Shown: piece after piece, positions 912 through 41,110 of the stretch
Numbering within the stretch: the stretch's first letter is position 1
Layout of the letters: every line of letters begins with the position of its first letter
NCBI GenBank assembly: GCA_028869315.1
Contig: JAGWSV010000029.1
Location: 6,304 to 70,303 of the forward strand
Origin: Rhodospirillales bacterium
Lineage (GTDB): Bacteria; Pseudomonadota; Alphaproteobacteria; Acetobacterales; Acetobacteraceae
Length of the DNA: 64,000 nucleotides
Reading direction: 5' to 3'
The notes under the pieces: model-generated
Databases searched by the model: none
Told to the model about the DNA's origin: nothing
Seen by the model: the letters and a program-made list of their open reading frames with translations, nothing else
Position numbers and translations under genes: made by a program

Positions 912-995
912 GCATCGCCGGCGCGGCCGGCCGGCGATGGCACGGCATCGTCGGCCAATAATACGGGCGGCCGCCGCGGCCAGGAGGCGCTCCGC

Positions 996-22942: not shown

Positions 22943-24033
22943 GCCGCCGCTGCCCGCCGGTAGCGGTAATAGGCGGCGCAAGCGCCTTCCGAGGAAACCA
23001 TGGTGGCGCCCAACGGATGTTCCGGCGTGCAGGACGTCCCGAAAGCGGGACACGCGACCGGCTTGCGCCGCCCGCGCAAGATATCGCCGCTGATGCACGG
23101 GCTGGCGCGCGGCGGCGCGGGGTCCGTGGCGCCGAAGCGGTTGCGCGCGTCGAACCGGGCGTAGACGGGCGCCAAGCCGAGGCCGCTCGCGGCGATCTCT
23201 CCCATGCCGCGCCAGTCGCGCGGCTCGATCGCAAACACCTGGCGGATCGCGGCCTGGGCCGGTTGGTTGCCGCCGGGGCGAACGGACCGGCCGTATTCGT
23301 TCTCCACCTCCGCCCGTCCCGCTTCCAACTGGCGCAGGCAGGACAGGATCCCCTGCAACAAATCCAGCGGTTCGAAGCCCGTCACCACGATGGGCACCCG
23401 GTAGCGCCGCGCGATCGGTTCGTATTCGCCGGTGCCCATCACCGTGCAGACATGCCCGGCGGCGAGGAAGCCCTGCACCCGCGCATCGGGCGCCGACAGC
23501 AGCGCCTCGATCGCCGGCGGCACCAGCACGTGCGAGACGAGGAGCGAGAAGTTGTCGAGGCCGGCGCGTTCGGCCTGCAGCACCGCCATCGCCGTCGCCG
23601 GGGCCGTGGTTTCGAACCCGACGGCGAGGAACACCACCTGCCGGTCGGGCCGGGCCTGGGCGAGCGCCACCGCGTCCAGCGGCGAATACACCATGCGCAC
23701 ATCGCCGCCACGCGCCCTGGCCGACAGCAGGCTGCCGGCATCGCCGGGCACCCGCAGCATGTCGCCGAACGAACACAACGTGACGCCGGGCGCACCGGCG
23801 ATCGCGATCGCCTGATCGATCACCGCGGCCGGCGTAACGCAGACCGGGCAGCCGGGGCCATGCAGCAAGGTCACATCCTCGGGCAGCATCTGATCGATCC
23901 CATGCCGCAACAGGGAGTGCGTCTGCCCGCCGCAGATTTCCATCAAGGTCCAGGGGCGGGTAACGGTGCCGGCGATCGCCTGCGCCAACCTCCGCGCTAA
24001 CGCGGCATCGCGGTACTCATCGACATATTTCAC
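22939..24033 (-). CDS. hypD: Hydrogenase maturation protein HypD
   Basis: [16 protein letters not shown] and GFETT motifs are present. The GTG start at 24033 follows GGAGGAGG. Confidence 0.92.
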
Positions 24034-24266
24034 CGTTCCGCCTCCTCCAGAGTGTCGAGGCAGGCGATGGTGCGCCGCGCCTCGGCCTCGTCCAGCACCG
24101 CGATGGCGACGCCGGCATGGGCGAGGACGTAGTCGCCGACCGCGGCCTCCGGCGCGAAGGCCAGGCTGATCGCCTTGACGATGCCGCCGAAGGCCACCCG
24201 GCCGCTGCGGGTCAGGGGGTCCTCGCCGGCGATTTCGAGCACTCGGCCGGGAACCGCGAGGCACAT
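24030..24266 (-). CDS. hypC: Hydrogenase maturation chaperone HypC
   Basis: It has the MCLAVPG N-terminus, is 78 aa long, and lies between hypF and hypD. Confidence 0.9.
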
Positions 24267-26608
24267 CAGGTTTTCTCCTCGATCATCGGGCGGGCGGCGA
24301 AGGCGATCTGCCCCACCGCGAGGCCGCCGTCGTTCGGCGGCACAAGGCGGTGGCGGAACGGCTCCACGCCCGCCGTACGCAAACCGGCGACCGCCAGCCC
24401 GGTCAGCCGCGCATTCTGGAAGCAGCCGCCGGTCAGCAGCACCCGCGCGGCCCCCAGCCGCCGCGCGACCGCCACGATGGCAGCGGCCAGGGCGGCATGG
24501 AAGCCGGCGGCGAGCCCGGCGGGCGCCGCACCCGCCGCCCGCGCGTCCAGCAGCCCTCGGAGCATCGGGCGCCAATCGACGACCAGCGGGCGGTCGCCGG
24601 AGATGATGGCGGGCGGCAAAGACAGGGGCGCGGCGGCCCGGTCGGCGGCCCATTCCAGCGCCATCGCCGCTTCGCCTTCGAAGCTCGCACGCTGGCACAA
24701 CCCCAGCAGCGCGGCGACGGCATCGAACAACCGCCCGGCGCTGGAGGTCGGCGGCGCGTTGACGTTGCGCGCCAGCATCGTGGCGAGCACGCGGCGCTCG
24801 GCCTCGGTGAACGCGGCGACCGGCGGCAATCCGGCCATGTCCAGCCCGGCGGCGCCGAACGTCGCGTGGAGGGCGCCCAGCGCGGCGCGGCGCGGTTCGC
24901 GCACCGCCGCCTCGCCGCCCGGCAGCCGGAAGGCCAGCAGATGCGCCGCGCGGCGGTAGCGCGGCGGAGAGATCGCCAGAAACTCCCCACCCCAGACCGT
25001 GCCGTCACCTCCGTAGCCGGTGCCGTCCCAGGTCGCCGCCAGCAGCGGGCCGTCCAGCCCGTGCTCGGCCATGCCGGACAGCGCATGGGCAAGATGGTGC
25101 GGCACCCGCACGACCGGCAGCCCCAGCGTATCGGCGTGCCGGGTGGAGGCATAGTCGGGATGCCGGTCGCAGGCCACGGCCATCGGGCGCAGGCGACGCA
25201 GGGCCAGCATGCGGTCGGCGGCCCGCACGAACGCGTCGCGGCTTTCGGTCCGATCCAGGTCGCCGCCATGCGGGCCGAGGAAGATCTGCCCGGCGAACCC
25301 GGTGGCGACGGCGTTCTTCTGCTGCCCGCCCAAGGCGAGGATCGGCGCCCGCACGGCGGGAAACGGGAGCGGCAGCGGCGCGTAGCCGCGCGCCCGGCGC
25401 AGCACCGTCGGCTGACCGGCGATGACCCGCGCCACCGAATCATCCACCGCGCGGGCGATCGGGCGGTCGTGCACCAGAAAGAGATCGGCCACGCCGGCCA
25501 GCACGGTGAGCGCCGTCTGCTCGTCGGCGATGATCGGGGTCTCTCCCGGGTTGCCGCTGGTCGCCACCACCGGAAAGCGGAGCGCCCACAGCAGCAGGTG
25601 ATGCAGCGGCGTCGTGGGCAGCATGACGCCGAGGTTGCCGCTACCGGGCGCGACCGAGGGCGCCAGCACCGCCGCCCCGGCCGCACGGCGCAGCAAAACG
25701 ATCGGCGCGGCCGGCGAGAGCAGCAGCTCGCGTTCGGTCGGCGAGACCTCGGCCACCGCCGACGCCGCGGCGAGGTCGGACACCATCAGCGCGAACGGCT
25801 TGCGCGGGCGGCGCTTGCGCGCGCGGAGCGTGCCCACCACGTCTTCGTTGCGGGCGTCGGCCAGCAACTGGAACCCGCCCAGCCCCTTCAGCGCGACGAT
25901 CCGTCCCGCGCGGAGCGCCGACGCCGCCTGGGTCAGGGCGGCCTCCCGGGTCGCCAGCACCGCGCCCGTGGTATCCCACAAGGCCAGATGCGGACCGCAG
26001 TCGGGACAGCAGATCGATTCGGCATGGAACCGGCGCGCGGTCGGGTCGGCGTACTCGGCCGCGCAGGTCGTGCAGAGCGGGAAGCGCCGCAAGGTCGTGC
26101 GGGCCCGATCATAGGGCAACGCCTCGATCACGCTGTAGCGCGGGCCGCACTGGGTGCAGGTGGTGAACGGATAGCGGAACCGGCGATCGGTGGGATCCGA
26201 CGCCTCGCGCAGGCAGTCGGCGCAGGTCGCCAGGTCAGCCATCACCGTCGCGGAACAGGGATCTCCGGCGGCGCTGGGCGCCACCGTGAAGTCCCGCTCC
26301 CCGCATGGCGGCTGCCGGCTGACTTCCCGCCCGGTGATGACGGCGTGGCGCGGCGGCTCCGTCGCCAGGCGGTCCAGGAAGCGCGCCAGGGCGGAGGATG
26401 GTCCTTCGGCCTCGATCAGCACGCCGCCGCCGGTGTTGCGGACGAAGCCGGCGAGCCCGGCCTGCTGCGCCAGGCGGGCGACGAACGGGCGGAAGCCGAC
26501 GCCCTGCACCGCGCCGGTGATTTCGATGCGCACCCGCTCGCGTGCCGCTGCCGGCGTCATCGGCGCGGGCGTCATCGGCGCGGGCGGAATGCCGTCGCCC
26601 GGTTGCAT
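24266..26608 (-). CDS. hypF: Carbamoyltransferase HypF
   Basis: An acylphosphatase domain ([10 protein letters not shown]) and two CxxC zinc-finger pairs (CADC...[12 protein letters not shown]...CPDCGP) are present. YrdC-like and Kae1-like C-terminal domains follow. Confidence 0.92.
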
Positions 26609-26626: not shown

Positions 26627-26890
26627 TCACGCTTCCAGCTCCAGGCTTTCCAGCAGCAGGCTCTGCGCGCGCGGATCGGAGGTGTCGCTCGATTCCGTTA
26701 CCGACAATCGCGCACCCTCGGCCAGCGTGCCGCGCGCTTCGGATTCGAAATGCTCGCGGAAATGTCCGGTCGACAGGTGGCTCAACGCGCCCAGCCAGAC
26801 CTTCACCTCCAGCACCCGGTGGGCGCCGTTCGCCTCGGCCGCCCGCACGACGTGCCGGATCAGGTCGCGCACCATTCCTGTTTCATGCAT
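26627..26890 (-). CDS. HypA-like nickel metallochaperone lacking the zinc-binding domain
   Basis: It has the MHE N-terminus and a HypA-like core (AHRVLEVKVWLGALSHLSTGHFREHFESEARGTLAEGARLSV). It is only 87 aa long and contains no Cys at all. It overlaps the upstream protease gene by 8 nt. Confidence 0.6.
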   Translation of the reverse strand: MHETGMVRDLIRHVVRAAEANGAHRVLEVKVWLGALSHLSTGHFREHFESEARGTLAEGARLSVTESSDTSDPRAQSLLLESLELEA

Positions 26891-27359
26891 CGCTGGTCCT
26901 CCCGTCCGAGCCGAATTCGGCGGCAACCTGCACCGCCGCGCTCGCCACCGCCGCCGCCACCGCCGGGCTCAGGGGCGCGCCGGGAGCGAAATCGGCGGCC
27001 TCGATCGCGTACAAAACGAGCTGCGCGGGCAGCCGCCCCAGCCTGCGCGCCAGTTCCACCGTATCCGCGAGCCCGAACGCGTGGGTGGACCCAAGCGCGA
27101 TCTCCCGCGGCAGCGGCCCGCGCGCCGCGTCGAGGCGGTGGATCCGCCCGGGCGCGGCCAAGGGCGCGGCGGCGTCGACCAGCACCACGCGCGGGACGCC
27201 GGCCCATCGGTCCATCAGCCCCAGCACGTCGCCACCCGCCTCTTCCACCGCGACCGCCGGCAGGCCGAGCGCCGCCACCCGGCGCGCGACGTGCAGCCCC
27301 ACCGCGTCGTCGCCGCGATCGGCGTTGCCGATTCCGATCACCAGCGCCGGCGCGGTCAT
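26883..27359 (-). CDS. [NiFe] hydrogenase maturation endopeptidase (HyaD/HoxW family)
   Basis: VIGIGNADRGDDAVG ... GSTHAFGLA are the typical protease motifs. There is a 4-nt overlap with the large-subunit gene. Confidence 0.85.
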   Translation of the reverse strand: MTAPALVIGIGNADRGDDAVGLHVARRVAALGLPAVAVEEAGGDVLGLMDRWAGVPRVVLVDAAAPLAAPGRIHRLDAARGPLPREIALGSTHAFGLADTVELARRLGRLPAQLVLYAIEAADFAPGAPLSPAVAAAVASAAVQVAAEFGSDGRTSDA

Positions 27360-28645
27360 CGCCGGCGGACCTCCAGCCGCAGGAAATGCGTCGAGCAGGA
27401 AATGCACGGGTCGTAGTTGCGGATCGCCTGCTCGCAGTGATCGCGCAATTCGTCCTCCGGCAGATCGAGGTCGCGGGTCGCGACGATCCGCAGGTCCTCC
27501 TCGATCGTGCCCTGGTTCTGCGAGGTCGGCGGCACGATGCGCGCGGAGAGGATGCTGCCGTCCGCGTTCAGTCGGTAGTGGTGATAGAGGATGCCGCGCG
27601 GCGCTTCGGTGCAGGCGACGCCGATGCCGGCCTGCGGCGGGGCGGCAACGAACGGCGCCTCGGGCGGGGCGTACGCGGCGATCAGGCGCAACGCCTCCTC
27701 GCAGGCGTAAACCACCTCGATCGCGCGGACGATAATGCTCCGGAACGGGTTGCGGCAGCCGGGCGCCAGCCCCAGTTCCGCGGCCAGCGCCTGCACCGAC
27801 GGCCCCAACCGGTCGTGGTTCAGGTTGAACCGCGCCAGCGGCCCGACCTGGTAGCTGCCCCGCGCGCGCAGCACCGACTGCAACGCGGTCGAGTGGGCGA
27901 CGTGGCGTTCCTCGAACGTGGCGTCGTAGTCGGACACCGGGATGTCCAGCCCCCGGTTGGAGACGAGGCGGCCCTCGTTCAGCGGGTACTCGTCCGGATG
28001 GCGCAGGGCCACGAATTCGTAATCGCGTTCGAAGTCGGGGAAGCGGAAGCCGGCGACCCAGCGCGCCAATGCGACCGCCTGCTCCCGTGCCGCTTGCAGG
28101 TCCGGCACCAGCGCGGCCAGTTCGTCGGCGGTCGGCGCCCGGTAGAAGCCGCCGACCCGCACATTCACCGGGTGGATCTCGCGCCCGCCCAGCAACCGCA
28201 GCAACGCGTTGCCGGTCTTCTTCAGCGCCAGCCCGCGCGTGACCATCTCGCCATGCGCCGAGGCCATGCTGATCGCGTCGGGGAAGCCGAGGAAATCGGG
28301 CGCGTGCAGCAGCACGATATGCAGCGCGTGGCTCTCGATCCACTCGCCGCAATAGAGCAGGCGGCGCAACGCGCGGATCGGCGGCGGCACCGCAAGGCCG
28401 AGCGCGTTCTCCACCGCGTGCACCGAACTCATCTGGTAGGCGACCGGGCAGATACCGCAGATGCGCGCGGTGATGTCCGGCGCCTCGGTCGCATCGCGCC
28501 CGCGCAGCAGCGCCTCGAAGAACCGCGGCGGCTCGAAGATGGAGAGCCGCACGCCGTCCACCGCGCCGTCGCGGATATCGAGTTCGAGCGCGCCCTCCCC
28601 TTCGACGCGGGTGAGGTAGTCAACCCGGATGGTGCGGCTCGGCAT
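27356..28645 (-). CDS. [NiFe] hydrogenase large (alpha) subunit, group 3 type
   Basis: The N-terminal motif is [10 protein letters not shown] and the C-terminal motif is DPCISCSTH, followed by a 9-aa tail. The ATG at 28645 is preceded by AGGAGAG. Confidence 0.92.
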
Positions 28646-29414
28646 GCGCTTCGCTCTCCTGACGGAACGGCTCGGCCGCCGCGTTGAACGTGCGGAAGGC
28701 CCGATGGAGGGTCCGCCGGTCCGCCCCCAGCGCCGTCCATGCGCCGGCGAGGGAGGCGGTGTTCGCTGCCTCCGCCGGGCCGTAGCAACCATAGCAGCCG
28801 CGGCCGTAGGCGGGGCAGATCGCGCCGCAGCCGGCATGGGTGACCGGCCCCAGGCACGGCGTGCCGTGCGCCACCATCACGCAGGACGTCCCGCGCTGCT
28901 TGCAGGACACGCACACGCTCTCGTTCGGGATCTGCGGCTTGCGCCCCGCGAGCAGGGCCGAGATCACCTCCAGCAACTGGTGCTTGTTGATCGGGCAGCC
29001 GCGCAGTTCGAAATCCACCGGCACATGGGCGGAGATCGGCGTCGAGGTTTCCAGGGTCCGGATGTACTCGGGCGAGGCATAGACCGCGGCGACGTAGTCC
29101 TTCACGTCGGCGAAGTTGCGCAGGCTCTGGATGCCGCCGGCGGTGGCGCAGGCACCGATGGTGATCAGCCGCTTGGACGCCGCGCGCACCATGCGGATCC
29201 GCTCGGCGTCATGTTCCGTCGTGACCGACCCTTCCACCAGCGACACGTCGTAGGGTCCCGGACGCAGGGTACTGGACGCTTCGGCGAAATAGGCGATGTC
29301 GACGGCACCGGCGACCGCCAGCAGTTCGTCCTCGCAATCCAGCAACGACAACTGGCAGCCGTCGCAGGAGGCGAACTTCCACACCGCGACGATGGGTCGG
29401 GTCCGCTCGGCCAT
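28620..29414 (-). CDS. [NiFe] hydrogenase small (delta) subunit, NuoB-like
   Basis: The Cys pattern is CDGC ... GACATAGG ... C-rich C-terminus ([31 protein letters not shown]). It overlaps the large-subunit start by 26 nt. Confidence 0.88.
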
Positions 29415-29416
29415 GC

Positions 29417-30256
29417 TCAGATCTCCCGTGCGGCGAGACGGGCGGCGATGCGGTCGTAGGCCAGCACGGCGCCGTCCTTGCAGACGAAGTCGGGGCCGAA
29501 CTGGCAATGCCCGCATAACCCGACCGCGCATTTCATGTTGCGCTCCATCGAGACGTGCACGTGGTCGTCCGCCACCCCGGCCGCGCGCAGCCCCGCCACG
29601 GTGAAGCGGATCATCACCTCCGGTCCGCACACCAGCGCCACCGTGTTCTTCGGATCGAACGCCACCTTGTCGATCAGCCCCGGCACCACGCCCACCCGGC
29701 CGTGCCAGGACGGATCGGCGTGATCCACCGTGATCTCCACTTCCATGTCGAGCCGGCCGCGCCACCGGGCAAGCTCGTCGTGGAACAGAAGCTCGGCCGG
29801 GCCGCGGCTGCCGTACAGGACGGCGATGCGGCCGAACCGCTCGCTGTTGGCGAGCACGTGGTAGATCGCCGGGCGCAGCGGCGCGAGACCGAGCCCGCCG
29901 GCGATGATCAGGATGTCGTGCCCGGCCGCCGCCGCCACCGGCCAGGCGCTGCCGAACGGGCCGCGCAGGCCGAGCACGGTGCCGGGCGTGGCAGCGGCGA
30001 TCGCGCCGCTCACCGCGCCCACCGCACGCACCGTATGCACGAAGCGGGACGCATCCGCCGGATCGCCGCTGAGACTGACCGGCACCTCGCCGATCCCGAA
30101 CGCGTAGAGCATGTTGAACTGGCCCGGCTTGAACGGCATAGGCGCGCCGGCGAGCGGCACCAGATCGAGGCTCACCACGTCGGCGGTCTCCCGCCGCACC
30201 GCTTGCACCCGCCACGGTTGCGGCAGCATCGGATCGGGCGCAACGGACGCGTTCAT
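29417..30256 (-). CDS. Hydrogenase gamma subunit, an FAD/NAD(P)-binding oxidoreductase with a C-terminal 2Fe-2S motif (AsrB/HydG-like)
   Basis: It has a ferredoxin-reductase-type fold (RxFS-like [14 protein letters not shown]) and ends with [12 protein letters not shown]. There is an ATGA overlap with the upstream gene. Confidence 0.85.
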
Positions 30257-30717
30257 GTGCCGGGATGCCCGTAGACGTCGAGCAATTGCTGGCGCGCCGC
30301 CTGCATCCGCCCCACCATCACCGGCAGCAGACGCTTCATCATCTCGTAGCCCAGATGATGGTCGGCCTCGCACTTGTCGCGCAGGCAGGCGGCATCGATC
30401 CCGAACGCGCGGGTCGCCGCCACCGCGCGGGCGTCGAAGTTCCAGCGATACGGCGGCACCAGCCACGACGCGCCGACGATCTCTCCGGCGCCCAGGGTGC
30501 CGATCACCAGGGGCGGGCGGCCGGGCACGTGCAGCTCCAGCGCCACGTTGCCTTCGCGGACCAGAAAGAACTCGTTAGCCGGCTCGTTCTCGCGGAACAG
30601 AAACTCGCCCGGCGCGAATCGAAGGTTGCGGGCGCAGCCGACCAGGATGCGGCCGATCGCCGGGTCGAGGTCGGTGAAGAACGGGTGGCCCAGCAGCAGG
30701 CGTTCAAGGGTTTCCAT
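30253..30717 (-). CDS. Stand-alone cyclic-nucleotide-binding (CAP effector-type) domain protein
   Basis: [49 protein letters not shown]...GAGEIVG is a cNMP-binding beta-barrel pattern. No HTH follows. The ATG at 30717 comes after GGGGAA. An alternative ATG lies at 30741. Confidence 0.75.
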
Positions 30718-31888
30718 GCGACGTTCCCCGCTTGGTGCCATGCGCGGCGGGATCGGCGCGGATCGCCGCCGCTTCCGCCGTGATGTCGATGCCCACCGGG
30801 CACCAGGTGATGCAGCGCCCGCAGCCGACGCAGCCGGAGGTGCCGAACTGGTCGATCCAGTGCGCCAGCTTGTGCGTCATCCACTGCCGGTAGCGCGATT
30901 TCGTGCTGCTGCGCACCGACCCGCCATGGATGTACGAGAAATCGGCAGTGAAGCAGGAATCCCAGTGCCGCACCCGCTCCGCCTCCTGGCCGGCGAGGTC
31001 GGTGTGGTCGGTAACGGTGGTGCAGAAGCAGGTCGGGCAGACCATGGTGCAGTTGGCACAGGCGAGGCACCGGCTCGCCACCTCGTCCCAGCGCGGATGC
31101 TCGGGATGGTCCTGCAGCAACGATTTCAGCCCGACCGTGTCCATGGTCCGGCCCATGCTCGCGGCGGTACGCGCCACCACCGCCTCAGCCGCAGCGATAT
31201 CCGCGGCACCGGCGGGCCGGGTCGGCAGGCCGGCGAGCAGCGCGGCGCCGGCCTCGCTACCGGCTTCCATGAGGAAGTCGTGCCGCGTGCCGCCGATCAG
31301 TTCGGTCAGCGCCAGATCGAACCCCGCCTCCGCCCGCGGGCCGGTTTCCATCGAAGCGCAGAAGCAGGTGCCGCCCGCGGTGCCGCAGTTCACCGCGACG
31401 ACGAAGGCGCCGCGCCGCCGCGCTTCATACCCTGTATCCTTGTGCGCGCCGCCCATGAACACGCGATCCTGAATGGCGATCGCATGCAGTTCGCAGGCGC
31501 GCACACCGATGAAGGCCAAGCGGGACGGCGGCGCCGGCTCGGGTTCGATGGCGAACCCGTCCTCCCGGCGGCGCGCGCGCCACAGCCGCTCCTGCGGCGG
31601 ATGCAGGAACTGCTTCCAGGAGTGCGGACCGACGGCGTAGCCGAACAACGCGGCGTCGCTGCGCCGCTCCAGCCCGTAGGTCCCGCCGTCCTGACGATCG
31701 GTCCAGCCGGCCGGCAGCTCCTCGATCCGGCGCAGCCGGTCATAGACGATGGCGCCGTCGCGCGCGCGCGGCCCGATCACCTCGAACCCGCACGCGGCGA
31801 GCGCGTCGATCAGGTCCTGCAAGGCCGGGCGGGGCAGCAGGACGCGCGCGCCGAGCAGGACCGAAGGCTGCGTCCTGGGCTCTGGCAT
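30704..31888 (-). CDS. Hydrogenase beta subunit, a 4Fe-4S dicluster protein (AsrA/HydB-like)
   Basis: [10 protein letters not shown] and two ferredoxin-type clusters ([28 protein letters not shown]) are present. The ATG at 31888 is preceded by AAGGAGGAG. An alternative ATG lies at 31906. Confidence 0.85.
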
Positions 31889-31912
31889 CGCTGGCTCCTC
31901 CTTCATCTCCCG

Positions 31913-34492
31913 CTATTCCTGCCAGCGGATAAGCGGCAACTCGACCGGCACCCGCGCTTCGGGGTGATAGGGCAGGATGCGAACAGTGAAGTCGGTGCGC
32001 GGGCGCGCGGTGGCGACCCGGCCGGTATAGGTGTAGCCGTTCACGGCCCCGGCGACCGGCCCGCCGCGGTCGAGCGGGATCGCCTGCGGCGGCGTGTCCG
32101 GCCCGGCATCAGCGTACAGCTCGACCCGGATATCCGCGGCGTCCACCTCGCCGAGATAGACCGGAACGCAGAACGACCAGCCGTCCTCCTCCGCGGTCGC
32201 GTCGGAGCGGCCGATATGCAGGCTCTTCCAGCCGTGGTGCAGCCGGCGTTCCCATTGCCGCAGCGCCTTCGCCACCGCCGCCCCGTCCGCCAGCCGCCGC
32301 CGCACCGCCGCCGCGGCCGGCAGGTACGCCTGGTCGAGGTAATCACGCAGCATACGGGTCGCGCTGAATTGCGGAGAGAGCCGCGCCATGCTCTGCCGCA
32401 CCCGCGTCAGCCAGGCGCGCGGGATACCGGCGGCATCGCGATCGTAGAACGCCGGCAGGACCTGCTGTTCCAGCCGCGCGTATAGCTCCGCCGCATCGAC
32501 GTCGTCCTGCGTCCGCTCGTCCGGCTGGGTGGTGGTGCCGATCGCCCAGCCCAGCTCCGGATCGAAGGCCTCCGCCCACCAGCCGTCGAGCTCGGAGAGA
32601 TTGAGCCCGCCGTTCACCAGCACCTTCATCCCGCTGGTGCCGCATGCCTCCCACGGACGGCGCGGCGTGTTGATCCAGACATCGACGCCCTGCACCATCT
32701 CCTGCGCCAGGGCGATGTCGTAATCCTCCAGGAATACGACCCGGTGCCAGAGGCTCGGGTGCTCGGTGAAGGCGACCCATTCCTGGATCATCTGCTTGCC
32801 CTGCACGTCCGCCGGATGCGCCTTGCCGGCGACCACCAGCTGCACCGGGCGCTGCGGATCGTTGAGCAGCCGTTCCAGCCGGGCGCGGTCGCGCAGCAGC
32901 AGGTTCGGCCGCTTATAGGCGGTGAAGCGGCGGGCGAAGCCGAGGGTGAGAAGGTTCGGATCGAGCACGCTTTCCGCCCGGCTCGCCACGGCGGGGCCGT
33001 AGCCGCGCACGCCAAGCTGCTTGCCCAGCCGGCGGCGGACCGCTTCCACGAGCTGCAGCCGTCCCTTGGCGCGCATCTCCCACAACACGTCGTCCCCGAC
33101 CGTGGCGATCGCCGCCTGCAGCGGCTCGGCCATCTGCCGCCACCGCTCCTTGCCGCCGGCCTGGGTGAAGATCGCGTCCGCTGCGCGGGAATCCCAGGTC
33201 GGCATGTGCACGCCGTTGGTCACGTGCCCGACCGGAACCTCGTGGCGCGGCCAGCGGGGAAATAGCCGCTGGAAGATGTCCCGGCTCACCGCCCCGTGCA
33301 GCGCGCTGACCGCGAAGCTGGCATAGGCGCCGCGCAGCGCCAGGAAGGCCATGTTGAACGGCTCGGCGACGGTCCCGCCGGTCAGCGCCAGCGCGGTCAG
33401 CCCGATGGCGTCGGCCTGCGGCCCCATCACGGCGTGGCGGTACTGGCCGGAGATGGAAATCGGGAACCGGTCGAATCCCGCCGCGACGGGGGTGTGGGTG
33501 GTGAAGATATTGCCCGCCCGGGTGGCCCACAGGGCGTCGTCGAAGCTGATGCCCGTGCGTTCGGAGAGGCTGCGCGCCCGCTCCAGCACCGCGAAGGCGG
33601 CGTGGCCTTCGTTCAGATGGCAGATCTCGATCTCCGGATGGATCGCCTCCACCAGCCGCCAGCCGCCGATGCCGAGTACGATCTCCTGCAGCATGCGCAG
33701 CTCGGTCCCGCCGCCGTAGAGCTTGCTGGTGATACCGCGATCGACCGGGCTGTTGAGCGGATCGTTGCTGTCCAGCAAATAGAGCACGGTGCGGCCGACG
33801 CCGGCGCGCCAGACCCGCAGCCGCAACGTCCGCCCTGGCAGCGCCACGGTGACGTGCCGGCGCGCGCCGGTATCGTCGAGCACCGGCTCCACCGGCATCA
33901 TCGCCGGTTCGTTGTACGGATAGGCGTCCTGCTGCCAGCCGGCGGCGTCGATCATCTGCCGGAAGTAGCCTTCCTGGTACAGCAGGCCGATGCCGATCGC
34001 CGGAATGCCGAGATCGCTCGCGGTCTTCATGAAATCGCCCGCCAGCACGCCCAGCCCGCCGGCATAGAGCGGCAGCGCCTCGCCGAGGCCGAACTCCATG
34101 CAGAAGAACGCGACCCCGCCGAGCGCCTTGGTGTCATAGGTCTCCGCGAACCAGCCGGTCGCCTGCAGATACGTGCGGCGTTCGGCGGCAAGCTCGTCGA
34201 GATGGGTCACGAAGCCGCGGTCGGCGGCCAGTTCGGCCAGCCTGGTGCCGGGAACGTCCTCGAGCAGCGCCCAGGGATTGTGGGTGCGCTCCCACAGCGC
34301 CGGATCGATCTGTGCCCAGAGCGCGTCGGCGCGATGACTCCAGGTCCAGCGCAGGTCGAGCGCGAGGTCGCGCAATGCGGCAAGCTCAGGCGGCAGCGGC
34401 AGACCCCGGCAGGGCGTCATCGTCGGCTCCGGCGACGCGGCCTGCCCTGGGAGAAACCGCGGCTGGGACGGGTTCGCCGCTGCGCCGCTCAT
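31913..34492 (-). CDS. glgP: Alpha-glucan phosphorylase (GT35, GlgP family)
   Basis: LDLRWTWSH, LNEGHAAF and GTSGMKVLVNGGLNLSELDGWWAE motifs are present. The start is uncertain. An alternative ATG lies at 34420. Confidence 0.88.
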   Translation of the reverse strand: MSGAAANPSQPRFLPGQAASPEPTMTPCRGLPLPPELAALRDLALDLRWTWSHRADALWAQIDPALWERTHNPWALLEDVPGTRLAELAADRGFVTHLDELAAERRTYLQATGWFAETYDTKALGGVAFFCMEFGLGEALPLYAGGLGVLAGDFMKTASDLGIPAIGIGLLYQEGYFRQMIDAAGWQQDAYPYNEPAMMPVEPVLDDTGARRHVTVALPGRTLRLRVWRAGVGRTVLYLLDSNDPLNSPVDRGITSKLYGGGTELRMLQEIVLGIGGWRLVEAIHPEIEICHLNEGHAAFAVLERARSLSERTGISFDDALWATRAGNIFTTHTPVAAGFDRFPISISGQYRHAVMGPQADAIGLTALALTGGTVAEPFNMAFLALRGAYASFAVSALHGAVSRDIFQRLFPRWPRHEVPVGHVTNGVHMPTWDSRAADAIFTQAGGKERWRQMAEPLQAAIATVGDDVLWEMRAKGRLQLVEAVRRRLGKQLGVRGYGPAVASRAESVLDPNLLTLGFARRFTAYKRPNLLLRDRARLERLLNDPQRPVQLVVAGKAHPADVQGKQMIQEWVAFTEHPSLWHRVVFLEDYDIALAQEMVQGVDVWINTPRRPWEACGTSGMKVLVNGGLNLSELDGWWAEAFDPELGWAIGTTTQPDERTQDDVDAAELYARLEQQVLPAFYDRDAAGIPRAWLTRVRQSMARLSPQFSATRMLRDYLDQAYLPAAAAVRRRLADGAAVAKALRQWERRLHHGWKSLHIGRSDATAEEDGWSFCVPVYLGEVDAADIRVELYADAGPDTPPQAIPLDRGGPVAGAVNGYTYTGRVATARPRTDFTVRILPYHPEARVPVELPLIRWQE

Positions 34493-34535
34493 GCCACGCA
34501 CCCGCTCGTCCCGGGTCTGTCGGGGGCCTTTCCCA

Positions 34536-36170
34536 TCAGTCGGCAGCCTCCGCCCAGTCCGGCGCGGCGCGACCCGCCCCGGACCAGCGGACCGCGGGCC
34601 GCAGCGCCGGGGGCCTGCCGCCGTTATCACCCGATATGGGGCCGGGACGCGGCCGTGTCTGCGTCTCCGGGGTCACCAGATCGCCATACAATGCCAGGTA
34701 GCGGCGGGCCGACATCTCCCAGCCGAAATCCCGCTGCATCGCGGCGCGCTGGCAGCGCCGCCAGGCGACCGGGTCGCGGAACAGGGTGCCGGCCCGGCGC
34801 AGGCAGTCCGCCAGGGCTTCGGGCGTCGGGTCCGAGAACGCGAAGCCGGTGCCGCAAGCGCGGTCCGGATGCGCGGTGGCGATATCGGTCACGCTGTCCG
34901 CCAGCCCGCCGACGGCGCGGGTGACCGGCAGCGCGCCGTAGCGCATCGCATACATCGTGGTGAGCCCGCAGGGCTCGAAGCGCGACGGGGTCAGGGCAAT
35001 GTCCGCCGCGCCGTTCAGCCGATGCGCCAGCGGCTCCTCGTAGCCGATGCGCACCGCGCAGCGTGCGGCGCGGCCGGCGGCGGCGGCCAGGAGCGCGGCC
35101 TCCAGTTCCGGATCGCCCTGGCCGTGCAGCGCGACCTGTGCCCCCTGGTCGAGCAGCGCCGGTAGCGCCTGCAGGATCACGTCGGCCATCTTCTGGTGCG
35201 TCAGCCGGTTCACGCCCACGACGAGCGGCCCGTCCGCATCGGGGTCGAGCCCGAGTTCCTCGCGCAGCGCCGCCTTGTCGGCCTGCTTGCCGGCCAAGTG
35301 ATCAACATCGAAGCGCACCGGCAGGCTGGCATCGGCGGCGGGGTTCCACAGCAGGGTGTCGATGCCGTTCAGGATCCCCACCAGATCGCCGGCGCGGGTC
35401 CGCAGCAGCCCGTCGAGCCCGGCGCCGAACGCAGGCGTAAGGATTTCCCGCGCATAAGTCGGGCTGACCGTGGTCAGCCGGTCGGCATAGCGGATCCCCG
35501 CCTTGAGACAGGAGAATTGGCCATAGAACTCGGCGCCGTCTGGCGTCAGCAGCGCCTCCGGCAGGCCCTGCGCACGGGCCGCGTCGAGGGGGAAATTTCC
35601 CTGGAAGGCCAGGTTGTGGATGGTGAACAGGCTGGCTGGGCGCGGCCCGGGGTGCAGCGCCAGCAAGGCCGGCAGCAGGCCGGTGTGCCAGTCATGCGCG
35701 TGCACCAGGTCGGGCTGCCAGCCGCTGCCGTCGCCGCTCCGCGCCACCTGCGCGGCCACCGCGCAGAAGCTGGCGAAGCGACGCAGATTGTCCGGCCAGT
35801 CCTGCTTGCCGCTGTCCTGGTAGGGGCCGCCGGGGCGGCGGAACAGTTCCGGCCAGTCGAGCAGGTAGACCGGCAGGCCGGTATCGGGCGTGCGTGCCAG
35901 CAGGAGGCATGCGCCATCCGCCAACCGTGCCACCGTCCGCTTGTCGCACGCCGCATCCAGTGCCGAAACATACCCAGGCAACATGGCGCGGACATCCGCT
36001 CCGAGCCGCTCCAGCGATGCCGGCAGCGCCGCGCAGGCGTCGCCGAGGCCGCCCGTCTTCGCCAGCGGAAACAGCTCCGAGGCCACGAACAAAACGCGCA
36101 GCCGATGCCCCGGCGCGCCGCCCTGCATGGCGTCCATCCTGTCCCCCCGGTCCGGTACCACCATCTCCAT
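34536..36170 (-). CDS. glgA: Glycogen synthase
   Basis: LRVLFVASELFPLAKTGGLGD is the N-terminal signature, and the protein has a GT5 C-terminal half. About 50 aa of Pro/Arg/Gly-rich tail follow the usual end. The start could also be the MDAMQ Met. Confidence 0.9.
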   Translation of the reverse strand: MEMVVPDRGDRMDAMQGGAPGHRLRVLFVASELFPLAKTGGLGDACAALPASLERLGADVRAMLPGYVSALDAACDKRTVARLADGACLLLARTPDTGLPVYLLDWPELFRRPGGPYQDSGKQDWPDNLRRFASFCAVAAQVARSGDGSGWQPDLVHAHDWHTGLLPALLALHPGPRPASLFTIHNLAFQGNFPLDAARAQGLPEALLTPDGAEFYGQFSCLKAGIRYADRLTTVSPTYAREILTPAFGAGLDGLLRTRAGDLVGILNGIDTLLWNPAADASLPVRFDVDHLAGKQADKAALREELGLDPDADGPLVVGVNRLTHQKMADVILQALPALLDQGAQVALHGQGDPELEAALLAAAAGRAARCAVRIGYEEPLAHRLNGAADIALTPSRFEPCGLTTMYAMRYGALPVTRAVGGLADSVTDIATAHPDRACGTGFAFSDPTPEALADCLRRAGTLFRDPVAWRRCQRAAMQRDFGWEMSARRYLALYGDLVTPETQTRPRPGPISGDNGGRPPALRPAVRWSGAGRAAPDWAEAAD

Positions 36171-36375
36171 TCAACCGGTTAGGGCGCGCCGGGCAGGTTG
36201 TCATTGATACGGATCAAGCCCGGCGCGCGATTATGATGCCAATGGGCCCGTTCCTCGCCGCTATCGGCGCCGACGGCGGCCGATAGCGCCGGGTTGATCG
36301 CTGATCCGCGCGGATGCGGCGTTGGTTGCAAACCGCAGGATACGCGCCCGCGCCTGGTTCCGAGGCCGGCGCGGA

Positions 36376-38592
36376 TCACGGCTCGGTGTCCGCCGGCGCG
36401 GCGCGGGCGGCGGCGATGTCAGCCGCGATCGCGCGCAACAGCCGGTCCTCGGCCAGCGCCTCCAGCGGCAGGCGATAGCGGTGTCGCCAGTTCGGTTTTG
36501 CATCGATAACGCCGGGGCGGTTGATCTGCTCCGTCTCCGCCAGCAGGTCGCCCAGATTGGCGAGCACCAGCGCCGCCGGGCTGCTGGCCAAAAACCGGTG
36601 GAGGGCGCGCAGCAGCGCCGCGATCGCGTCGGGATCGTCGGTCGCCTCGACCGCGGGAGATTCTGTCGCCTCGACCGCGGGAGATTCTGTCGCCTCGACC
36701 GCGGGAGATTCTGTCGCCTCGACCGCAGACTCATCGGTCGCCGCCACCACCTCGCCATCCGACACCAGGCCGCGATCACGCAGCGCGGCCAGCAGCAGCA
36801 CGCGGTCCTGCGCGCGTCGGACCGCATCGGCGTCCGCGCCCGGCCCGGGCGGGAGATCGCAGCCCTGCCACCAGCCGCGCACGGTCGGCAGGTCGTGGGT
36901 GCCGAACGCGGCCAGCGCCCGGCCCGGATAGGTGCCGGGCCGGCGGAACAGCCCGTTCGGCCAGCGCTCGAACAGCATCAGCCGACAGGACAGCAGCCCA
37001 GCCGCCGCCATGTGCTCATGGAACCCATCCGGCAGGGTGCCGAGATCCTCGCCCACCAGCAGGCAGCGATTGCGGTGGCTCTCCAGCGCGAGGATGCCAA
37101 GCAGGTCGTCGCGCGGATAGCGCAGATAGGCACCCTCCCGCGCCGAACCGCCCGACGCGACGACATAGAGCCGTTCCAGCCCCATCACGTGGTCGATCCG
37201 CAGCGCCGTCGCATGGCGCATATTGGCCCGGACGGCGGCGACGTAGCTGCCGTAGGCGCCGGCGCGCAGCGCCACCGGGTCGGGTGGCGGCAGGCCCCAG
37301 TTCTGGCCCTCAGGATTGAACGCGTCCGGCGGGGCGCCGAACCGCGCCGCCGTCAGGAACTGGCCGGGATCGTCCCAGACATCGGCGCCGTCCGGATGCA
37401 CGCCGATCGCAAGATCGCGATAGAGCCGGGCCGCGCCCGCGTCCGCCGCCACGGCGGCAAGCTGGCGGTCGGCGATCCATTGCAGCCAGACGTGATACGC
37501 GCTCCGGTCCCTGTGTTCGCGCCGGAACGCCGCGATCCCCGGCGCGGCCGGACCGCGCAGGGCCGTCGGCCAGTCGTGCCAGGGGCGCGGGGCAAAGGCC
37601 TCGGCAAGCGCGGTGAACAGCGCGAACCGCTCCAGCGCCGCCCCGCCGTCGCGGCGGAACGCGTCGAGATCCGCCGGCACTTCCTCCCGGTTTCGCGCCT
37701 GGTACGCGGCGGCCAGCGCAGCGTGCTTGACCTCGTGGACCAGCGGATAGTCGATCCCGCGCGCCGCCTCCGGCAGGCGGCGTCCGGGCCGCGCCGCCCC
37801 GGAGCCGGCGGACGCCAGCGCCGTCACGTCGATATGCAGCGGGTTCAGGAACCGCCGGCTCGACGGCTGATAGGGGTTCGGATCGGCGATCGCGCCCGGC
37901 AGCGGCGCGTGCAGCGGGTTGAGCCCGACCAGCCGCGCGCCGAGCGTCTGCGCCAGCCGGGTCAGCCGCGCCAGGTCGGAAAAATCCCCGATCCCCCAAC
38001 TCCGCGCCGACCACAGAGCGAACAACGGGCAGCCGACCGCCCAGCCGCGCGCGCCCTCGGCCAGCCACCCCGGCAGCCAGGCCTGCGCGGGGGCCTGCAC
38101 CAGCACCGCCGCGCCGGAGCACCCTCTGGCCTCGACCTCCAGCCGGTGATACCCGAGCGGCAGGTCGGCTGGCAGGGTCACCGCCACGCGCCGGCGTCCA
38201 CCGGACCGCCCGGGCCGCTGCGCCAGCACGGCCGCGTCGGCCAGCGCCTCGACCCCGCGTCGGGCCGAGCCGTCTTCCAGCGCGATGCGCCAGGCAAGCC
38301 TCCCGGCGGCCGCGGCGTCCGAAACCACCGCCGCGACGCACGGCGCCGCGCCGTGGACTGGACGCAGCACGACGACCGGCGGCAGGATCGTGTCCCACGG
38401 TGCCTCCTCGCGCGCGGCGACGGCGTCCCGCACCGCGGCCGGGCGGTTGGCGTCGTGACCGAGCACGCTCAGCACGGCCCGGCGTGTCTCCGGACTGATC
38501 CGGCGATACGTGCCTTCGGTGTCCCGGTATCCCGGCTCGATGCCGGCAAGTTCGGCCAGACGTTCGATGGCCGCTTCGTCTCCGCCGTTCAT
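36376..38592 (-). CDS. malQ: 4-alpha-glucanotransferase (GH77 amylomaltase) with an N-terminal extension
   Basis: LHIDVTAL..., WGLPP, RIDHVMGL, VGEDLGTLP and GTHD motifs are present. The ATG at 38592 is preceded by GGAAGGAAG. Confidence 0.88.
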   Translation of the reverse strand: MNGGDEAAIERLAELAGIEPGYRDTEGTYRRISPETRRAVLSVLGHDANRPAAVRDAVAAREEAPWDTILPPVVVLRPVHGAAPCVAAVVSDAAAAGRLAWRIALEDGSARRGVEALADAAVLAQRPGRSGGRRRVAVTLPADLPLGYHRLEVEARGCSGAAVLVQAPAQAWLPGWLAEGARGWAVGCPLFALWSARSWGIGDFSDLARLTRLAQTLGARLVGLNPLHAPLPGAIADPNPYQPSSRRFLNPLHIDVTALASAGSGAARPGRRLPEAARGIDYPLVHEVKHAALAAAYQARNREEVPADLDAFRRDGGAALERFALFTALAEAFAPRPWHDWPTALRGPAAPGIAAFRREHRDRSAYHVWLQWIADRQLAAVAADAGAARLYRDLAIGVHPDGADVWDDPGQFLTAARFGAPPDAFNPEGQNWGLPPPDPVALRAGAYGSYVAAVRANMRHATALRIDHVMGLERLYVVASGGSAREGAYLRYPRDDLLGILALESHRNRCLLVGEDLGTLPDGFHEHMAAAGLLSCRLMLFERWPNGLFRRPGTYPGRALAAFGTHDLPTVRGWWQGCDLPPGPGADADAVRRAQDRVLLLAALRDRGLVSDGEVVAATDESAVEATESPAVEATESPAVEATESPAVEATDDPDAIAALLRALHRFLASSPAALVLANLGDLLAETEQINRPGVIDAKPNWRHRYRLPLEALAEDRLLRAIAADIAAARAAPADTEP
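36641..36736. repeat. 24-bp direct tandem repeat, three perfect copies plus one degenerate copy, in frame inside malQ
   Basis: The unit gtcgcctcgaccgcgggagattct occurs at 36641-36664, 36665-36688 and 36689-36712. A diverged fourth unit follows. On the minus strand it encodes (ESPAVEAT)n. Confidence 0.9.
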
Positions 38593-38695: not shown

Positions 38696-41110
38696 ATGCC
38701 CGAGTCCATCATGCCTTTGGATATGAACCGTACCCAGACAAAACCGCCCCCCGCGGCGCAGCGCGAGGCGCCGGGACGCCCCGGCATTGCCCCGACCTGG
38801 ACGAGCAGCGCCAAGGACGTGGTCGGCTGCTCGCTGGGGCCGGCGCGGCTGTGGTTCACCCTCGGCTTCGGCATCGTGACCGAGGTCTACTATCCGCGGG
38901 TTGATCTGCCGCAACTGCGCGATCTCGGGTTCATCGTCGCCGACGGCGCGGGCTTCTGGGTCGAGGTGAAGCGGCTCGGCACGTACGAGGTGCGGCTGAT
39001 CGCGCCGGGCGTGCCGGCGGTCGAGATTCTGCACACCCACCCGCGCTTCCGCCTGCGGCTGCGCATCACCCCCGACCCCACCCGCGACGTGCTGCTCGTC
39101 GAAGCCACCTTGACCGGCGATCCGGCGCTGCGGCTGCATGTCCTTCTGGCGCCGCATCTGGGCGCCACCGGAGAGGGCAACGTCGCCGCCGTGGCGCGCT
39201 ACCGCGGCCGGCAGGTGCTGTGGGCGGAACAGGGGCCGTTCGGCCTTGCGCTCGCCGCGGTCGACGCCGGCCAGCGCGACGTGTTCGGGTCCGCCAGCGC
39301 CGGCTATGTCGGCGTCAGCGACGGCTGGCAGGATTTCGCCCTGCATGGCGCCATGACCTGGCAATACGACGTCGCCGGGCCGGGCAACGTCGCGCTGGTC
39401 GCCGCCCTGCCGCGGGCTTCGGTGCTGGCTCTCGGCTTCGCCGGCAGCAAGCAGGCCGCCGCCACCCTCGCCGTCTCCAGCCTGCTCGAACCGTTCGACG
39501 CCGTGATGCTGCGCCAGGTGTCGGACTGGCAGGCCTGGTACGCGCTCGCCAACGCCCGCAATCCGGTGCGCTGGGAGGCGCCGGAACCGTTGCGGGATCA
39601 GTTCATGATCTCGACCATGGTGCTGCGCAGCCATCTCGACAAGACCTATCCGGGCGCCATGGTCGCCAGCCTCAGCATCCCCTGGGGCGATCGCGGCGGC
39701 GAGCGCGGCGGCTACCATCTGGTCTGGCCGCGAGACCTCGTGCACTGCGCCAGCGCGCTGCTGGCGCTGGGGGCGGAGGACGAGGCGCGCAACGCGCTGC
39801 GCTACCTGATCGCCACCCAGCGCGAAGACGGCCATTGGGAACAGAATCAGTGGCTGGGCGGGCGGCCTTACTGGCAGGGCAAGCAGCTCGACCAAACCGC
39901 CTTCCCGGTGCTGCTCGCTTCCCTGCTGGCCGAGCGCAACGCGCTCGGCGGCACCGAAATCGGCGACATGATCTGCCGCGCCCTTGGCTACCTGCTGCGC
40001 GAGGGGCCGGTGAGCGAGCAGGACCGCTGGGAGGAAAGCGCCGGCATCACGGCTTCCACCCTCGCCGCCTGCATCGCCGCGCTGGTGGCCGGGGCGCCGT
40101 TCCTGCCGCTGCGCGCCCGCCGGCTGGCGCTGGCGACGGCGGATTTCTGGAACGACCGGGTGGAGACCTGGCTGGTCGCCCGCGGCGGCCGGCTGGCCGA
40201 CCGGTTCGGCCTGCCCGCCTATTACGTGCATCTCGCGCCGTCGCGCATCCTGACCGACGCGGACGCGCTCGCCGATCCGATCCCGCTGCACAACCAGATG
40301 GAGGCGCGGAGCATCACGGCGGCCGAACTGGTCTCGCTCGACTTCCTGCACCTGGTGCGGCTGGGGCTGCGGCGGGCGGCGGACCCGCTGGTGCTGGACA
40401 GCCTGGCGCTGGCGGACTCGCTGTTGAAAGTGGAGACGCCGGCGGGGCCGGCCTGGCACCGCTACGTGGGCGACGGCTACGGCGAAACCGAGGACGGCGG
40501 CGCCTTCATCGGTGCCGGCCGCGGCCGGGCCTGGCCGCTGCTGAGCGGCGAGCGGGGCCATTACGAGGTGGCGGCCGGCCGCGATCCGCTGCCGCTGCTG
40601 GAATCCATGGCGGCGATGGCCGGCAAAGGCGGCATGATCTCCGAGCAGGTCTGGGACACCGACGCGCTGCCCAAGCGCTACCTGTTCCCCGGCCGGCCGA
40701 CCGGATCCGCCACGCCGCTCGCCTGGGCGCATGCGGAGTTCGTGAAGCTCGTGCTCTCGCGCCGGGCAGGCCGGGCCATCGATGCCCCGGCGGCGGCCGG
40801 GCGGCGTTACCGTGGGCTGCGGCGCCCGGCACGGCGCAGCGTCTGGCTGGCGCACGCGCCGACCGCTGGCTTTCCGGCCGGCAGCCGCGTGATCGTCGCC
40901 CTGCCGCGCGCGGCGCAGGTGCATTGGGGGGCTGACGGCTGGCAACATCCGCATGACGTGGCGACGATGGACAGCCGCCTTGGCCTGCACACGGCGGATC
41001 TACGGGTGGAGCACCTGCCGCCCGGCGCCACCGTCGATTTCACCTGGAAATGGCGCGACGGCGGAACCTGGTCCGGCCAGGACGTGCATCTTCGCGCCGA
41101 GGAACGCTGA
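38696..41110 (+). CDS. GH15 glucoamylase / glucodextranase family enzyme
   Basis: It has a bacterial GH15 N-domain followed by the catalytic (alpha/alpha)6 region (YHLVWPRD, RWEESAGI, LSGERGHYE, WAHAEF). It is divergent from malQ. Confidence 0.85.
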   Translation: MPESIMPLDMNRTQTKPPPAAQREAPGRPGIAPTWTSSAKDVVGCSLGPARLWFTLGFGIVTEVYYPRVDLPQLRDLGFIVADGAGFWVEVKRLGTYEVRLIAPGVPAVEILHTHPRFRLRLRITPDPTRDVLLVEATLTGDPALRLHVLLAPHLGATGEGNVAAVARYRGRQVLWAEQGPFGLALAAVDAGQRDVFGSASAGYVGVSDGWQDFALHGAMTWQYDVAGPGNVALVAALPRASVLALGFAGSKQAAATLAVSSLLEPFDAVMLRQVSDWQAWYALANARNPVRWEAPEPLRDQFMISTMVLRSHLDKTYPGAMVASLSIPWGDRGGERGGYHLVWPRDLVHCASALLALGAEDEARNALRYLIATQREDGHWEQNQWLGGRPYWQGKQLDQTAFPVLLASLLAERNALGGTEIGDMICRALGYLLREGPVSEQDRWEESAGITASTLAACIAALVAGAPFLPLRARRLALATADFWNDRVETWLVARGGRLADRFGLPAYYVHLAPSRILTDADALADPIPLHNQMEARSITAAELVSLDFLHLVRLGLRRAADPLVLDSLALADSLLKVETPAGPAWHRYVGDGYGETEDGGAFIGAGRGRAWPLLSGERGHYEVAAGRDPLPLLESMAAMAGKGGMISEQVWDTDALPKRYLFPGRPTGSATPLAWAHAEFVKLVLSRRAGRAIDAPAAAGRRYRGLRRPARRSVWLAHAPTAGFPAGSRVIVALPRAAQVHWGADGWQHPHDVATMDSRLGLHTADLRVEHLPPGATVDFTWKWRDGGTWSGQDVHLRAEER

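Follow-up and report, generated by a model that had tools for sequence, protein, structure and literature searches.

We describe here a run of genes in which storage-glucan metabolism and a hydrogenase are joined, found in a 64-kb stretch of DNA (hereafter the window; 70-75% G+C) from an uncultured soil bacterium of the Acetobacteraceae that is represented by a metagenome-assembled genome (MAG; G000) of 3.95 Mb in 360 contigs, 89% complete. In this run the glycogen synthase gene glgA and the alpha-glucan phosphorylase gene glgP lead with hardly a gap into the genes of a [NiFe] hydrogenase assigned to group 3b (hyh) and into hydrogenase maturation (hyp) genes, and upstream of glgA lies a palindrome of the FNR/FixK type. 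We propose, at what we judge to be even chances, that these genes constitute a single low-oxygen-induced unit that would make storage-glucan turnover and a NAD(P)H:H2 valve together. The components are all of known kinds; what is new is the joined arrangement headed by the palindrome, which is restricted to one genus of the Acetobacteraceae. A preliminary description of the same DNA had known of no account of a glgA-glgP-hyh unit, and full-text searching of the literature (supplements excluded) also returned, within the text accessible in this way, no report of a group 3b hydrogenase operon that has glycogen genes joined to it.

Gene identities were taken from Pfam and NCBIfam profile matches, with bit scores compared to family cut-offs, and an FNR-type box was defined as TTGAT-N4-ATCAA, either perfect or with at most one mismatch as stated for each count. 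The run comprises 13 minus-strand genes in 14.3 kb (glgA, glgP, beta, the gene of a cyclic-nucleotide-monophosphate (cNMP)-binding-domain protein, gamma, small, large, protease and hypA'/F/C/D/E), which are given here from the promoter region downstream:

36204 to 36217: FNR/FixK-type palindrome TTGATCCGTATCAA (minus-strand reading), the sole perfect TTGAT-N4-ATCAA in the window
36177 to 36182, minus strand: putative -10-like CTAACC, 21 nucleotides (nt) downstream of the box
34536 to 36137, minus strand: glgA, glycogen synthase, 533 amino acids (aa) (NF001899, 604 bits, cut-off 459; Glyco_transf_5)
31913 to 34492, minus strand: glgP, alpha-glucan phosphorylase of the DUF3417/TIGR02094 type (TIGR02094, 762 bits, cut-off 191.7; DUF3417 and Phosphorylase)
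30704 to 31888, minus strand: hyhB, hydrogenase beta subunit, AsrA-like, 4Fe-4S (Fer4_22; best NCBIfam matches sulfhyd_HydB, ShyB and AsrA)
30253 to 30717, minus strand: HoxI-like cNMP-binding-domain protein, 154 aa (cNMP_binding only, no DNA-binding part)
29417 to 30256, minus strand: hyhG, gamma subunit, FAD/NAD(P)-binding, 2Fe-2S (NAD_binding_1 and DHODB_Fe-S_bind; best NCBIfam match hydrogenase subunit gamma/AsrB)
28620 to 29414, minus strand: hyhS, small (delta) subunit (Oxidored_q6; best NCBIfam matches sulfhyd_ShyD and HydD)
27356 to 28645, minus strand: hyhL, [NiFe] large subunit of group 3b type (NiFeSe_Hases; metal motifs; sulfhydrogenase matches in the PDB)
26883 to 27359, minus strand: hydrogenase maturation protease, HycI type (TIGR00072, 104 bits, cut-off 47; HycI)
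26627 to 26890, minus strand: short HypA, 87 aa (HypA profile matched at positions 1-67 of 112 only)
24266 to 26608, minus strand: hypF (TIGR00143, 737 bits, cut-off 466)
24030 to 24266, minus strand: hypC (TIGR00074, 68 bits, cut-off 48)
22939 to 24033, minus strand: hypD (TIGR00075, 484 bits, cut-off 193)
21902 to 22942, minus strand: hypE, the final gene of the tight run (TIGR02124, 407 bits, cut-off 252)

The distances between consecutive genes (negative values being overlaps) are:

glgA/glgP: +34 or +43 nt
glgP/beta: +24 (or +6) nt
beta/cNMP: -14 nt
cNMP/gamma: -4 nt (ATGA)
gamma/small: +2 nt
small/large: -26 nt
large/protease: -4 nt
protease/hypA: -8 nt
hypA/hypF: +18 nt
hypF/hypC: -1 nt
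hypC/hypD: -4 nt
hypD/hypE: -4 nt

All junctions from glgA to hypE fall between a 26-nt overlap and a 43-nt gap, which bears out the earlier statement that a minus-strand run with short or overlapping junctions extends to hypE at 21902. The coordinates previously given for the central junction were also correct on checking: the glgP stop codon TAG occupies 31913-31915, and the beta-subunit gene can start at ATG 31906, 6 nt on, or at ATG 31888, 24 nt on, the latter being preceded by AAGGAGGAG at a spacing of 6 nt. The glgA start ATG 36137 is preceded by GGGGGGACAGG, an alternative start at 36170 being possible, and alternative glgP starts are possible at 34501 or 34420. A simple terminator scan of 19 kb revealed 8 sites, against 4.9 +/- 2.4 expected, and placed none of them at the glgP/beta junction or at any other junction of the glgA-hypE run, while hypE is followed by a 151-nt gap before the next gene, which encodes a CBS-domain protein. 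No Rfam family exceeded its threshold at 20000-46000 of the window. Among RNA sequencing runs, none was found that contains 30700-34600 of the window. Judging from gene order and spacing, glgA to hypE most likely form one transcription unit, with transcription most likely beginning from a promoter in front of glgA and not at malQ, the next gene upstream.

We compared this arrangement across a genus sample of 12 genomes including G000, to which two named MAG records (L027 and L116) were added. Hydrogenase genes are present in eight of the 12 genomes (G000, G001, G002, G004, G006, G007, G009 and G010) and were not found in G003 (98% complete), G005 (62%), G008 (88%) or G011 (82%). The distribution of glgP of the DUF3417 type is identical, this gene being found in those eight genomes and not in the other four. 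In seven of the eight (G000, G001, G002, G004, G007, G009 and G010) glgP stands directly before beta, with 75-85% protein identity among the genus loci that keep this order, and in L027 the junction is the same. The distance from glgP stop to beta start is 5-24 nt in eight genus loci, and the conserved glgP end ...CTGGCAGGAGTAG provides the ribosome-binding GGAG of beta within the last glgP codons, so that no room is left for an intergenic promoter. Across the genus, the distance between glgA and glgP varies from -4 to about 60 nt, and in L116, in which glgA was not found, the hydrogenase follows glgP after 61-97 nt. Since further genomes of the genus show the same glgP/beta junction, it is not an assembly accident; DNA contigs of three sequencing runs bridged glgP and beta only in the possible source sample, whereas the pieces listed from a second study do not span the junction, and so lend no independent support. 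The adjacency first noted in this one genome is therefore retained in seven of eight hydrogenase-bearing genomes of the genus, with a remnant in the eighth, but the wider comparison of gene order goes the other way, the arrangement being conserved within the genus and not outside it.

The eighth genome, G006, carries genes for an ISAzo13-family transposase and TrwC relaxases in place of glgA and most of glgP (L022; G006:C174, 11480-18700). The last 84 glgP codons (about 270 nt of the 3' end), fused to a new N-terminus, still precede an intact hydrogenase cluster there, and a one-mismatch box lies upstream of this glgP stump. In three long-contig genomes, the matches to hyhS, glgA, glgP, hypD or hypE are split (L018 of G010, L019 of G004 and L021 of G009), G010 having one extra nt inserted about 85 nt ahead of the glgP stop codon; the split matches may be real frameshifts or sequencing errors.

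The box at 36204-36217 lies in the malQ-glgA spacer, its centre 73 nt ahead of the glgA start codon at 36137. When up to one mismatch is allowed, such a box occurs 78-103 nt before glgA in all nine genus loci with glgA-glgP, five of the nine being perfect, and it is kept whether the upstream neighbour is malQ or a glucoamylase gene; no second box at this threshold was found between the glgA box and beta in those loci. Most of the aligned genus promoters have a CTA-type hexamer, a putative -10 element, about 21 nt after the box. The spacing of box and CTA hexamer would fit an FNR-type promoter of class II, in which the site is centred near -41.5 from the transcription start. In G003, where neither this glgP nor the hydrogenase was found, glgA has no box at its promoter.

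The G000 genome contains 21 perfect TTGAT-N4-ATCAA sites compared to about 0.11 expected from base composition, and five genomes simulated with a first-order Markov model contained 0-2 each; an excess of this size shows that the motif is not present here by chance. We annotated 20 open reading frames beside the perfect sites, leaving out glgA itself and four reading frames more than 230 nt away, and found among them HemN, a universal stress protein, OmpW, a di-haem cytochrome c peroxidase, a CBS-pair protein and a multicopper oxidase. Genes of the hemN, usp, ompW and ccp kinds are typical FNR targets. At least seven regulators of the Crp/FNR family are encoded in the genome, two of which, FnrL-like candidates on contigs C347 and C72, have an N-terminal CxxCx7C and a central Cys. 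The 21 sites (for example C98:9500, C74:596 and C153:5087, hemN and usp forming a divergent pair) make up a candidate FnrL/FixK-type regulon, and we predict from the box that glgA-glgP-hyh-hyp belongs to a regulon of oxygen limitation.

As to the hydrogenase itself, the preliminary description had assigned it to group 3b from its subunit set, and this assignment holds in our comparisons with profiles and with the sequences of solved enzymes. The best PDB matches of the large subunit are the sulfhydrogenase alpha subunits of Pyrococcus furiosus and Thermococcus kodakarensis (224-217 bits; 9nez, 9e15 and 5yxy), ahead of group 3c MvhA (183), 3d (146), 3a (about 133) and groups 1 and 2 (at most 115 bits), and the NCBIfam ranking is similar, with 293 bits for ShyA and 236 for HydA versus 137 for FrhA and 132 for VhuA. 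The partner set of group 3b is present (AsrA-like beta, AsrB-like gamma and NuoB-like small subunit in Pfam and NCBIfam), and all four subunits score best against sulfhydrogenase families, albeit far under the equivalog cut-offs; with 293 against 700 bits for alpha, the enzyme therefore belongs to a distant bacterial branch of group 3b. The two metal-binding CxxC motifs of the large subunit, the RxCGxC-type one near the N-terminus and the C-terminal DPCISCSTH, are invariant in seven aligned homologues. With the large-subunit query, neither a group 1 or 2 uptake hydrogenase nor an H2 sensor turned up in the MAG. The only other match to this query is a 462-aa NuoD-like protein (G000:C335:2871-4259; 748-2136, minus strand, of L015), which scores 202 bits to NuoD, below the cut-off, and could be a complex I subunit or a relative of group 4-type hydrogenases.

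A wider hydrogenase sample was made up of the best 80 of roughly 600 loci of large-subunit relatives from many phyla. In 76 of these 80 loci, including Thermoplasmata archaea, a homologue of the cNMP-domain protein is encoded between beta and gamma, a point that the preliminary description had missed: on this gene order the cNMP gene is part of the normal layout of this hydrogenase clade and not an interruption, and its product is probably a HoxI-like fifth hydrogenase subunit. The short HypA begins with MHE and contains no cysteine and therefore has no zinc-binding domain; it is kept at full length in related clusters (46-75% identity), with a homologue in 24 of the 80 loci. In the 89%-complete MAG, no hypB was found above the cut-off (best match 69.7 bits, cut-off 121).

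Outside the genus, the module of beta, cNMP, gamma, small, large and protease genes, in some cases with hyp genes as well, is found across many phyla, archaea among them, at 57-69% large-subunit identity, mostly with unrelated neighbours. In a quick maximum-likelihood tree of large subunits (IQ-TREE with SH-aLRT; 86 sequences from 90 input loci, four without a large-subunit match of at least 380 aa being omitted, and all of them relatives of this hydrogenase clade), the genus is monophyletic (SH-aLRT 100) with L028 as its sister (84); L036 and L046 come next, followed by G022, of the same family, and G033, the whole group having a value of 98. Several of these nearest relatives also stand beside sugar genes. 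In L028, glgB-glgX-malQ lie directly upstream of the hydrogenase on the same strand. In L046 (3047-6666), two boxes are followed by ppsA (phosphoenolpyruvate (PEP) synthase), a PfkB kinase gene and, 9 nt on, beta, with a phosphofructokinase gene and a thiamine pyrophosphate (TPP) enzyme gene downstream, and in G022 genes of the glgX, glgA, Crp-like, glgP (broken) and pgm types are found 1-8 kb beyond hypE. Among more distant loci, the gammaproteobacterial L080 has the same type of glgP 1.5 kb upstream, a divergent regulator gene of the Crp family and two boxes before beta, and in the acidobacterial L081 (4387-6777) PEP synthase abuts beta. PEP synthase is also found after hypE in two loci of the genus (L027, 10585-14289; L022, 1-1554), and acyl/acetyl-CoA-synthetase-like genes are nearby in six loci. 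These sugar genes beside related modules are suggestive only, the cases being few and partly kin by descent.

Similarly, we searched for the box in front of beta in loci outside the genus. Of the 77 such loci in which the sequence extends 350 nt or more ahead of beta, nine have a box (one mismatch allowed) within that distance, compared to about 1.2 expected from the box density in the same loci. Most of the nine are proteobacterial, and no box within 350 nt before beta was found in the closest outgroups L028, L046, G022 and G033.

Upstream of the box, in order of increasing distance from the hydrogenase, the following genes of glucan metabolism were identified:

36376 to 38592, minus strand: malQ, 4-alpha-glucanotransferase (Glyco_hydro_77, TIGR00217)
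38696 to 41110, plus strand: GH15 glucoamylase-type gene, divergent (Glucodextran_N and Glyco_hydro_15)
42224 to 44386, minus strand: glgX-like debranching enzyme (CBM_48 and Alpha-amylase)

With glucoamylase and glgX-like genes upstream, the hydrogenase therefore lies at the edge of a glucan locus. The spacer between malQ and glgA is about 240 nt long, and in two related loci malQ is absent between the glucoamylase gene and glgA while the box is retained; malQ is probably a unit separate from glgA-hypE. The branching enzyme gene glgB is on another contig (C168:19400-28000) among three further genes of the alpha-amylase family. The presence of dnaA at 46068-47561 (plus strand), about 10 kb from glgA, puts the glucan-hydrogenase locus close to the likely replication origin. 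The encoded DnaA shares 70-77% identity with the proteins of Roseomonas, Acidiphilium, Acetobacter and Rhodopila records, in line with the placement of the bacterium in the Acetobacteraceae. On the other side of the run, the CBS-pair gene after hypE (21271-21750, minus strand) has a two-mismatch box, TTGATATAGCGCAA, at 21821-21834, 77 nt before its start; a CBS paralogue on contig C90 of G000 has a perfect box, and CBS genes also follow hypE in G010.

Parts of this arrangement have counterparts in known systems. In enterobacterial glgBX-glgCAP, synthase and phosphorylase genes are co-transcribed under a global regulator of the Crp/FNR superfamily, with no hydrogenase. Compared to that operon, the unit described here is without glgC or glgB, its phosphorylase is of the DUF3417/TIGR02094 type, and its box is the FNR-type TTGAT-N4-ATCAA. 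The four-subunit set of the hydrogenase is like that of P. furiosus sulfhydrogenases I and II and of the T. kodakarensis cytosolic hydrogenase, which are the best matches for all four subunits; unlike these archaeal clusters, ours has an extra HoxI-like gene, joined glycogen genes and an FNR-type box in front. The order of genes is the same as in Frankia synton-4 and in the Hyd-3b cluster of 'Methylocapsa acidophilus', both of group 3b, in which a small cNMP-domain gene lies between two diaphorase genes and is called "regulator" in the Frankia paper and HoxI in that on the alphaproteobacterial methanotroph; the passages of those papers that deal with the clusters describe no adjoining glycogen genes (PMC11879354, PMC12319191).

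The closest functional parallel is Hyh of Mycobacterium smegmatis, an enzyme of the same group that is induced by hypoxia, gets rid of reductant in the form of H2 and is associated with carbon storage, a neighbouring PEP synthase gene being co-induced (10.1101/2023.09.11.557286). Induction by oxygen limitation, as predicted here, and the links to carbon storage and PEP synthase are common to both, and box-ppsA-pfkB-beta in L046 parallels the PEP synthase gene near M. smegmatis hyh. In the text of that report the mycobacterial regulator is DosS/T-DosR whereas we find an FNR-type box, the store is triacylglycerol whereas here it would be glycogen, and no glg genes are mentioned in the operon.

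On these grounds we propose the following working of the unit. In response to oxygen shortage, an oxygen-sensing regulator of the FNR/FixK family would bind 36204-36217 and activate the predicted class-II-type promoter, such that glgA, glgP, the genes of the cytosolic group 3b enzyme, which is NAD(P)-linked, and those for its maturation would be switched on together. GlgP would free glucose-1-phosphate from stored glucan, the breakdown of glucose-1-phosphate would yield ATP by substrate-level phosphorylation as well as NAD(P)H, and the hydrogenase, in a role modelled on that of M. smegmatis Hyh, would re-oxidise NAD(P)H and make H2. The preliminary description had suggested that glycogen-derived reductant is disposed of as H2 during hypoxia; the conserved FNR-type box strengthens the hypoxia part of this suggestion, whereas the direction of electron flow, from glycogen through NAD(P)H to H2, is one that we infer by analogy.

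Several observations weigh against such a low-oxygen glycogen-to-H2 unit. Its first gene encodes a synthase and not a catabolic enzyme; glgC was not found above the cut-off in the 89%-complete MAG (best match 47 bits, cut-off 425); and four of the eight terminator-like sites are weak minus-strand stems of 5-6 bp within the coding sequences of the protease, hypF and hypD. The regulator acting at the box could be some other Crp/FNR-family protein, one with a different signal, and NAD(P)H-driven formation of H2 is described as thermodynamically poor except at very low H2 (PMC7078480). Other points bear on whether the two sets of genes have anything to do with each other. The adjacency is confined, in the loci compared, to one genus-level clade of the Acetobacteraceae: among 79 loci of glgP relatives only two have a hydrogenase, both of this clade, and among the 80 hydrogenase loci only four, one of them from the genus, have a glycogen-type gene within about 10 kb. 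The three such cases in the 79 loci outside the genus compare with about 1.2 by chance on a rough estimate, which is not significant. Box-glgA-glgP is also present in L112 and G006:C221, where no hydrogenase was found in the 2.5 and 0.8 kb, respectively, of downstream sequence; it follows that the promoter belongs to glgA-glgP and that the hydrogenase may merely ride along.

The last of these points lead to an explanation by neutral hitch-hiking, in which a mobile hydrogenase block landed behind glgP in the ancestor of the genus and is perhaps read through from the glgA promoter, with no link between glycogen and H2. The wide distribution of the module among unrelated neighbours, at 57-69% large-subunit identity, and its intact state in G006 after an insertion sequence element had removed the glycogen genes are in keeping with such mobility. 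However, its closest relatives L028, G022 and L046 also lie beside glucan or glycolytic genes in different arrangements, the unrelated gammaproteobacterial L080 has the same type of glgP 1.5 kb upstream, and the tight junction is kept across species whose proteins are only 75-85% identical; we consider hitch-hiking unlikely, if still to be taken seriously. The operon could also be the same and its electrons run in reverse, the hydrogenase taking up H2 under limited respiration and the resulting NAD(P)H feeding gluconeogenesis and the synthesis of glycogen. The position of glycogen synthase as first gene would suit this flow, as would the gluconeogenic PEP synthase, whose gene comes after hypE in two genus loci and before beta in L046 and L081. 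The literature describes enzymes of group 3b as bidirectional (PMC7078480), and in a methanotroph H2 oxidation raised the glycogen content, though via a group 1d enzyme (PMC6706786). Conversely, the phosphorylase gene is directly before the hydrogenase genes, the large-subunit query revealed no uptake-type hydrogenase or H2 sensor in the MAG beside the NuoD-like match, and the sole bacterial group 3b enzyme studied physiologically evolves H2 in hypoxia. Reverse flow therefore seems to us a decidedly unlikely alternative.

It is more improbable still, in our estimation, that there are two units, with a hydrogenase promoter inside the 3' end of glgP that is regulated apart from glgA-glgP. Internal promoters are frequent in long operons, and the retention of about 270 nt of the glgP 3' end before beta in G006 would fit a hidden promoter of this sort, but a box has at the same time been gained ahead of the stump in G006. 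In no genus locus was a box, even with one mismatch allowed, found within the glgP 3' stretch, and the last 350 nt of glgP are conserved codon-wise, the only extra conserved block being the final roughly 25 nt with the GGAG. A scan for sigma-70-type promoters also gave 0 sites in 19 kb, a result that is uninformative at 71% G+C.

Returning to the single low-oxygen-induced unit, its implications extend beyond this locus, since hydrogenases of group 3b are common among the bacteria of soils and sediments but have had their role tested in only a very small number of organisms. On the basis that the module is preceded by glgA-glgP here, by glgB-glgX-malQ or ppsA-pfkB in the nearest relatives and by ppsA elsewhere, we tentatively suggest, as a possibility that we favour less than the unit itself, that group 3b modules of soil aerobes have repeatedly been captured by low-oxygen-regulated sugar operons, and that fermentation of the store to H2 is a hard-wired, FNR-type survival programme in the Acetobacteraceae, a counterpart of the mycobacterial DosR-Hyh system. 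The sugar genes by related modules (glgBX-malQ and ppsA-pfkB) indicate that the link may be general and not the quirk of one genus. If true, the operon would show both the source of the electrons and the use of a group 3b enzyme, namely to carry the cell through a shortage of oxygen on its internal reserves, with the electrons leaving as H2.

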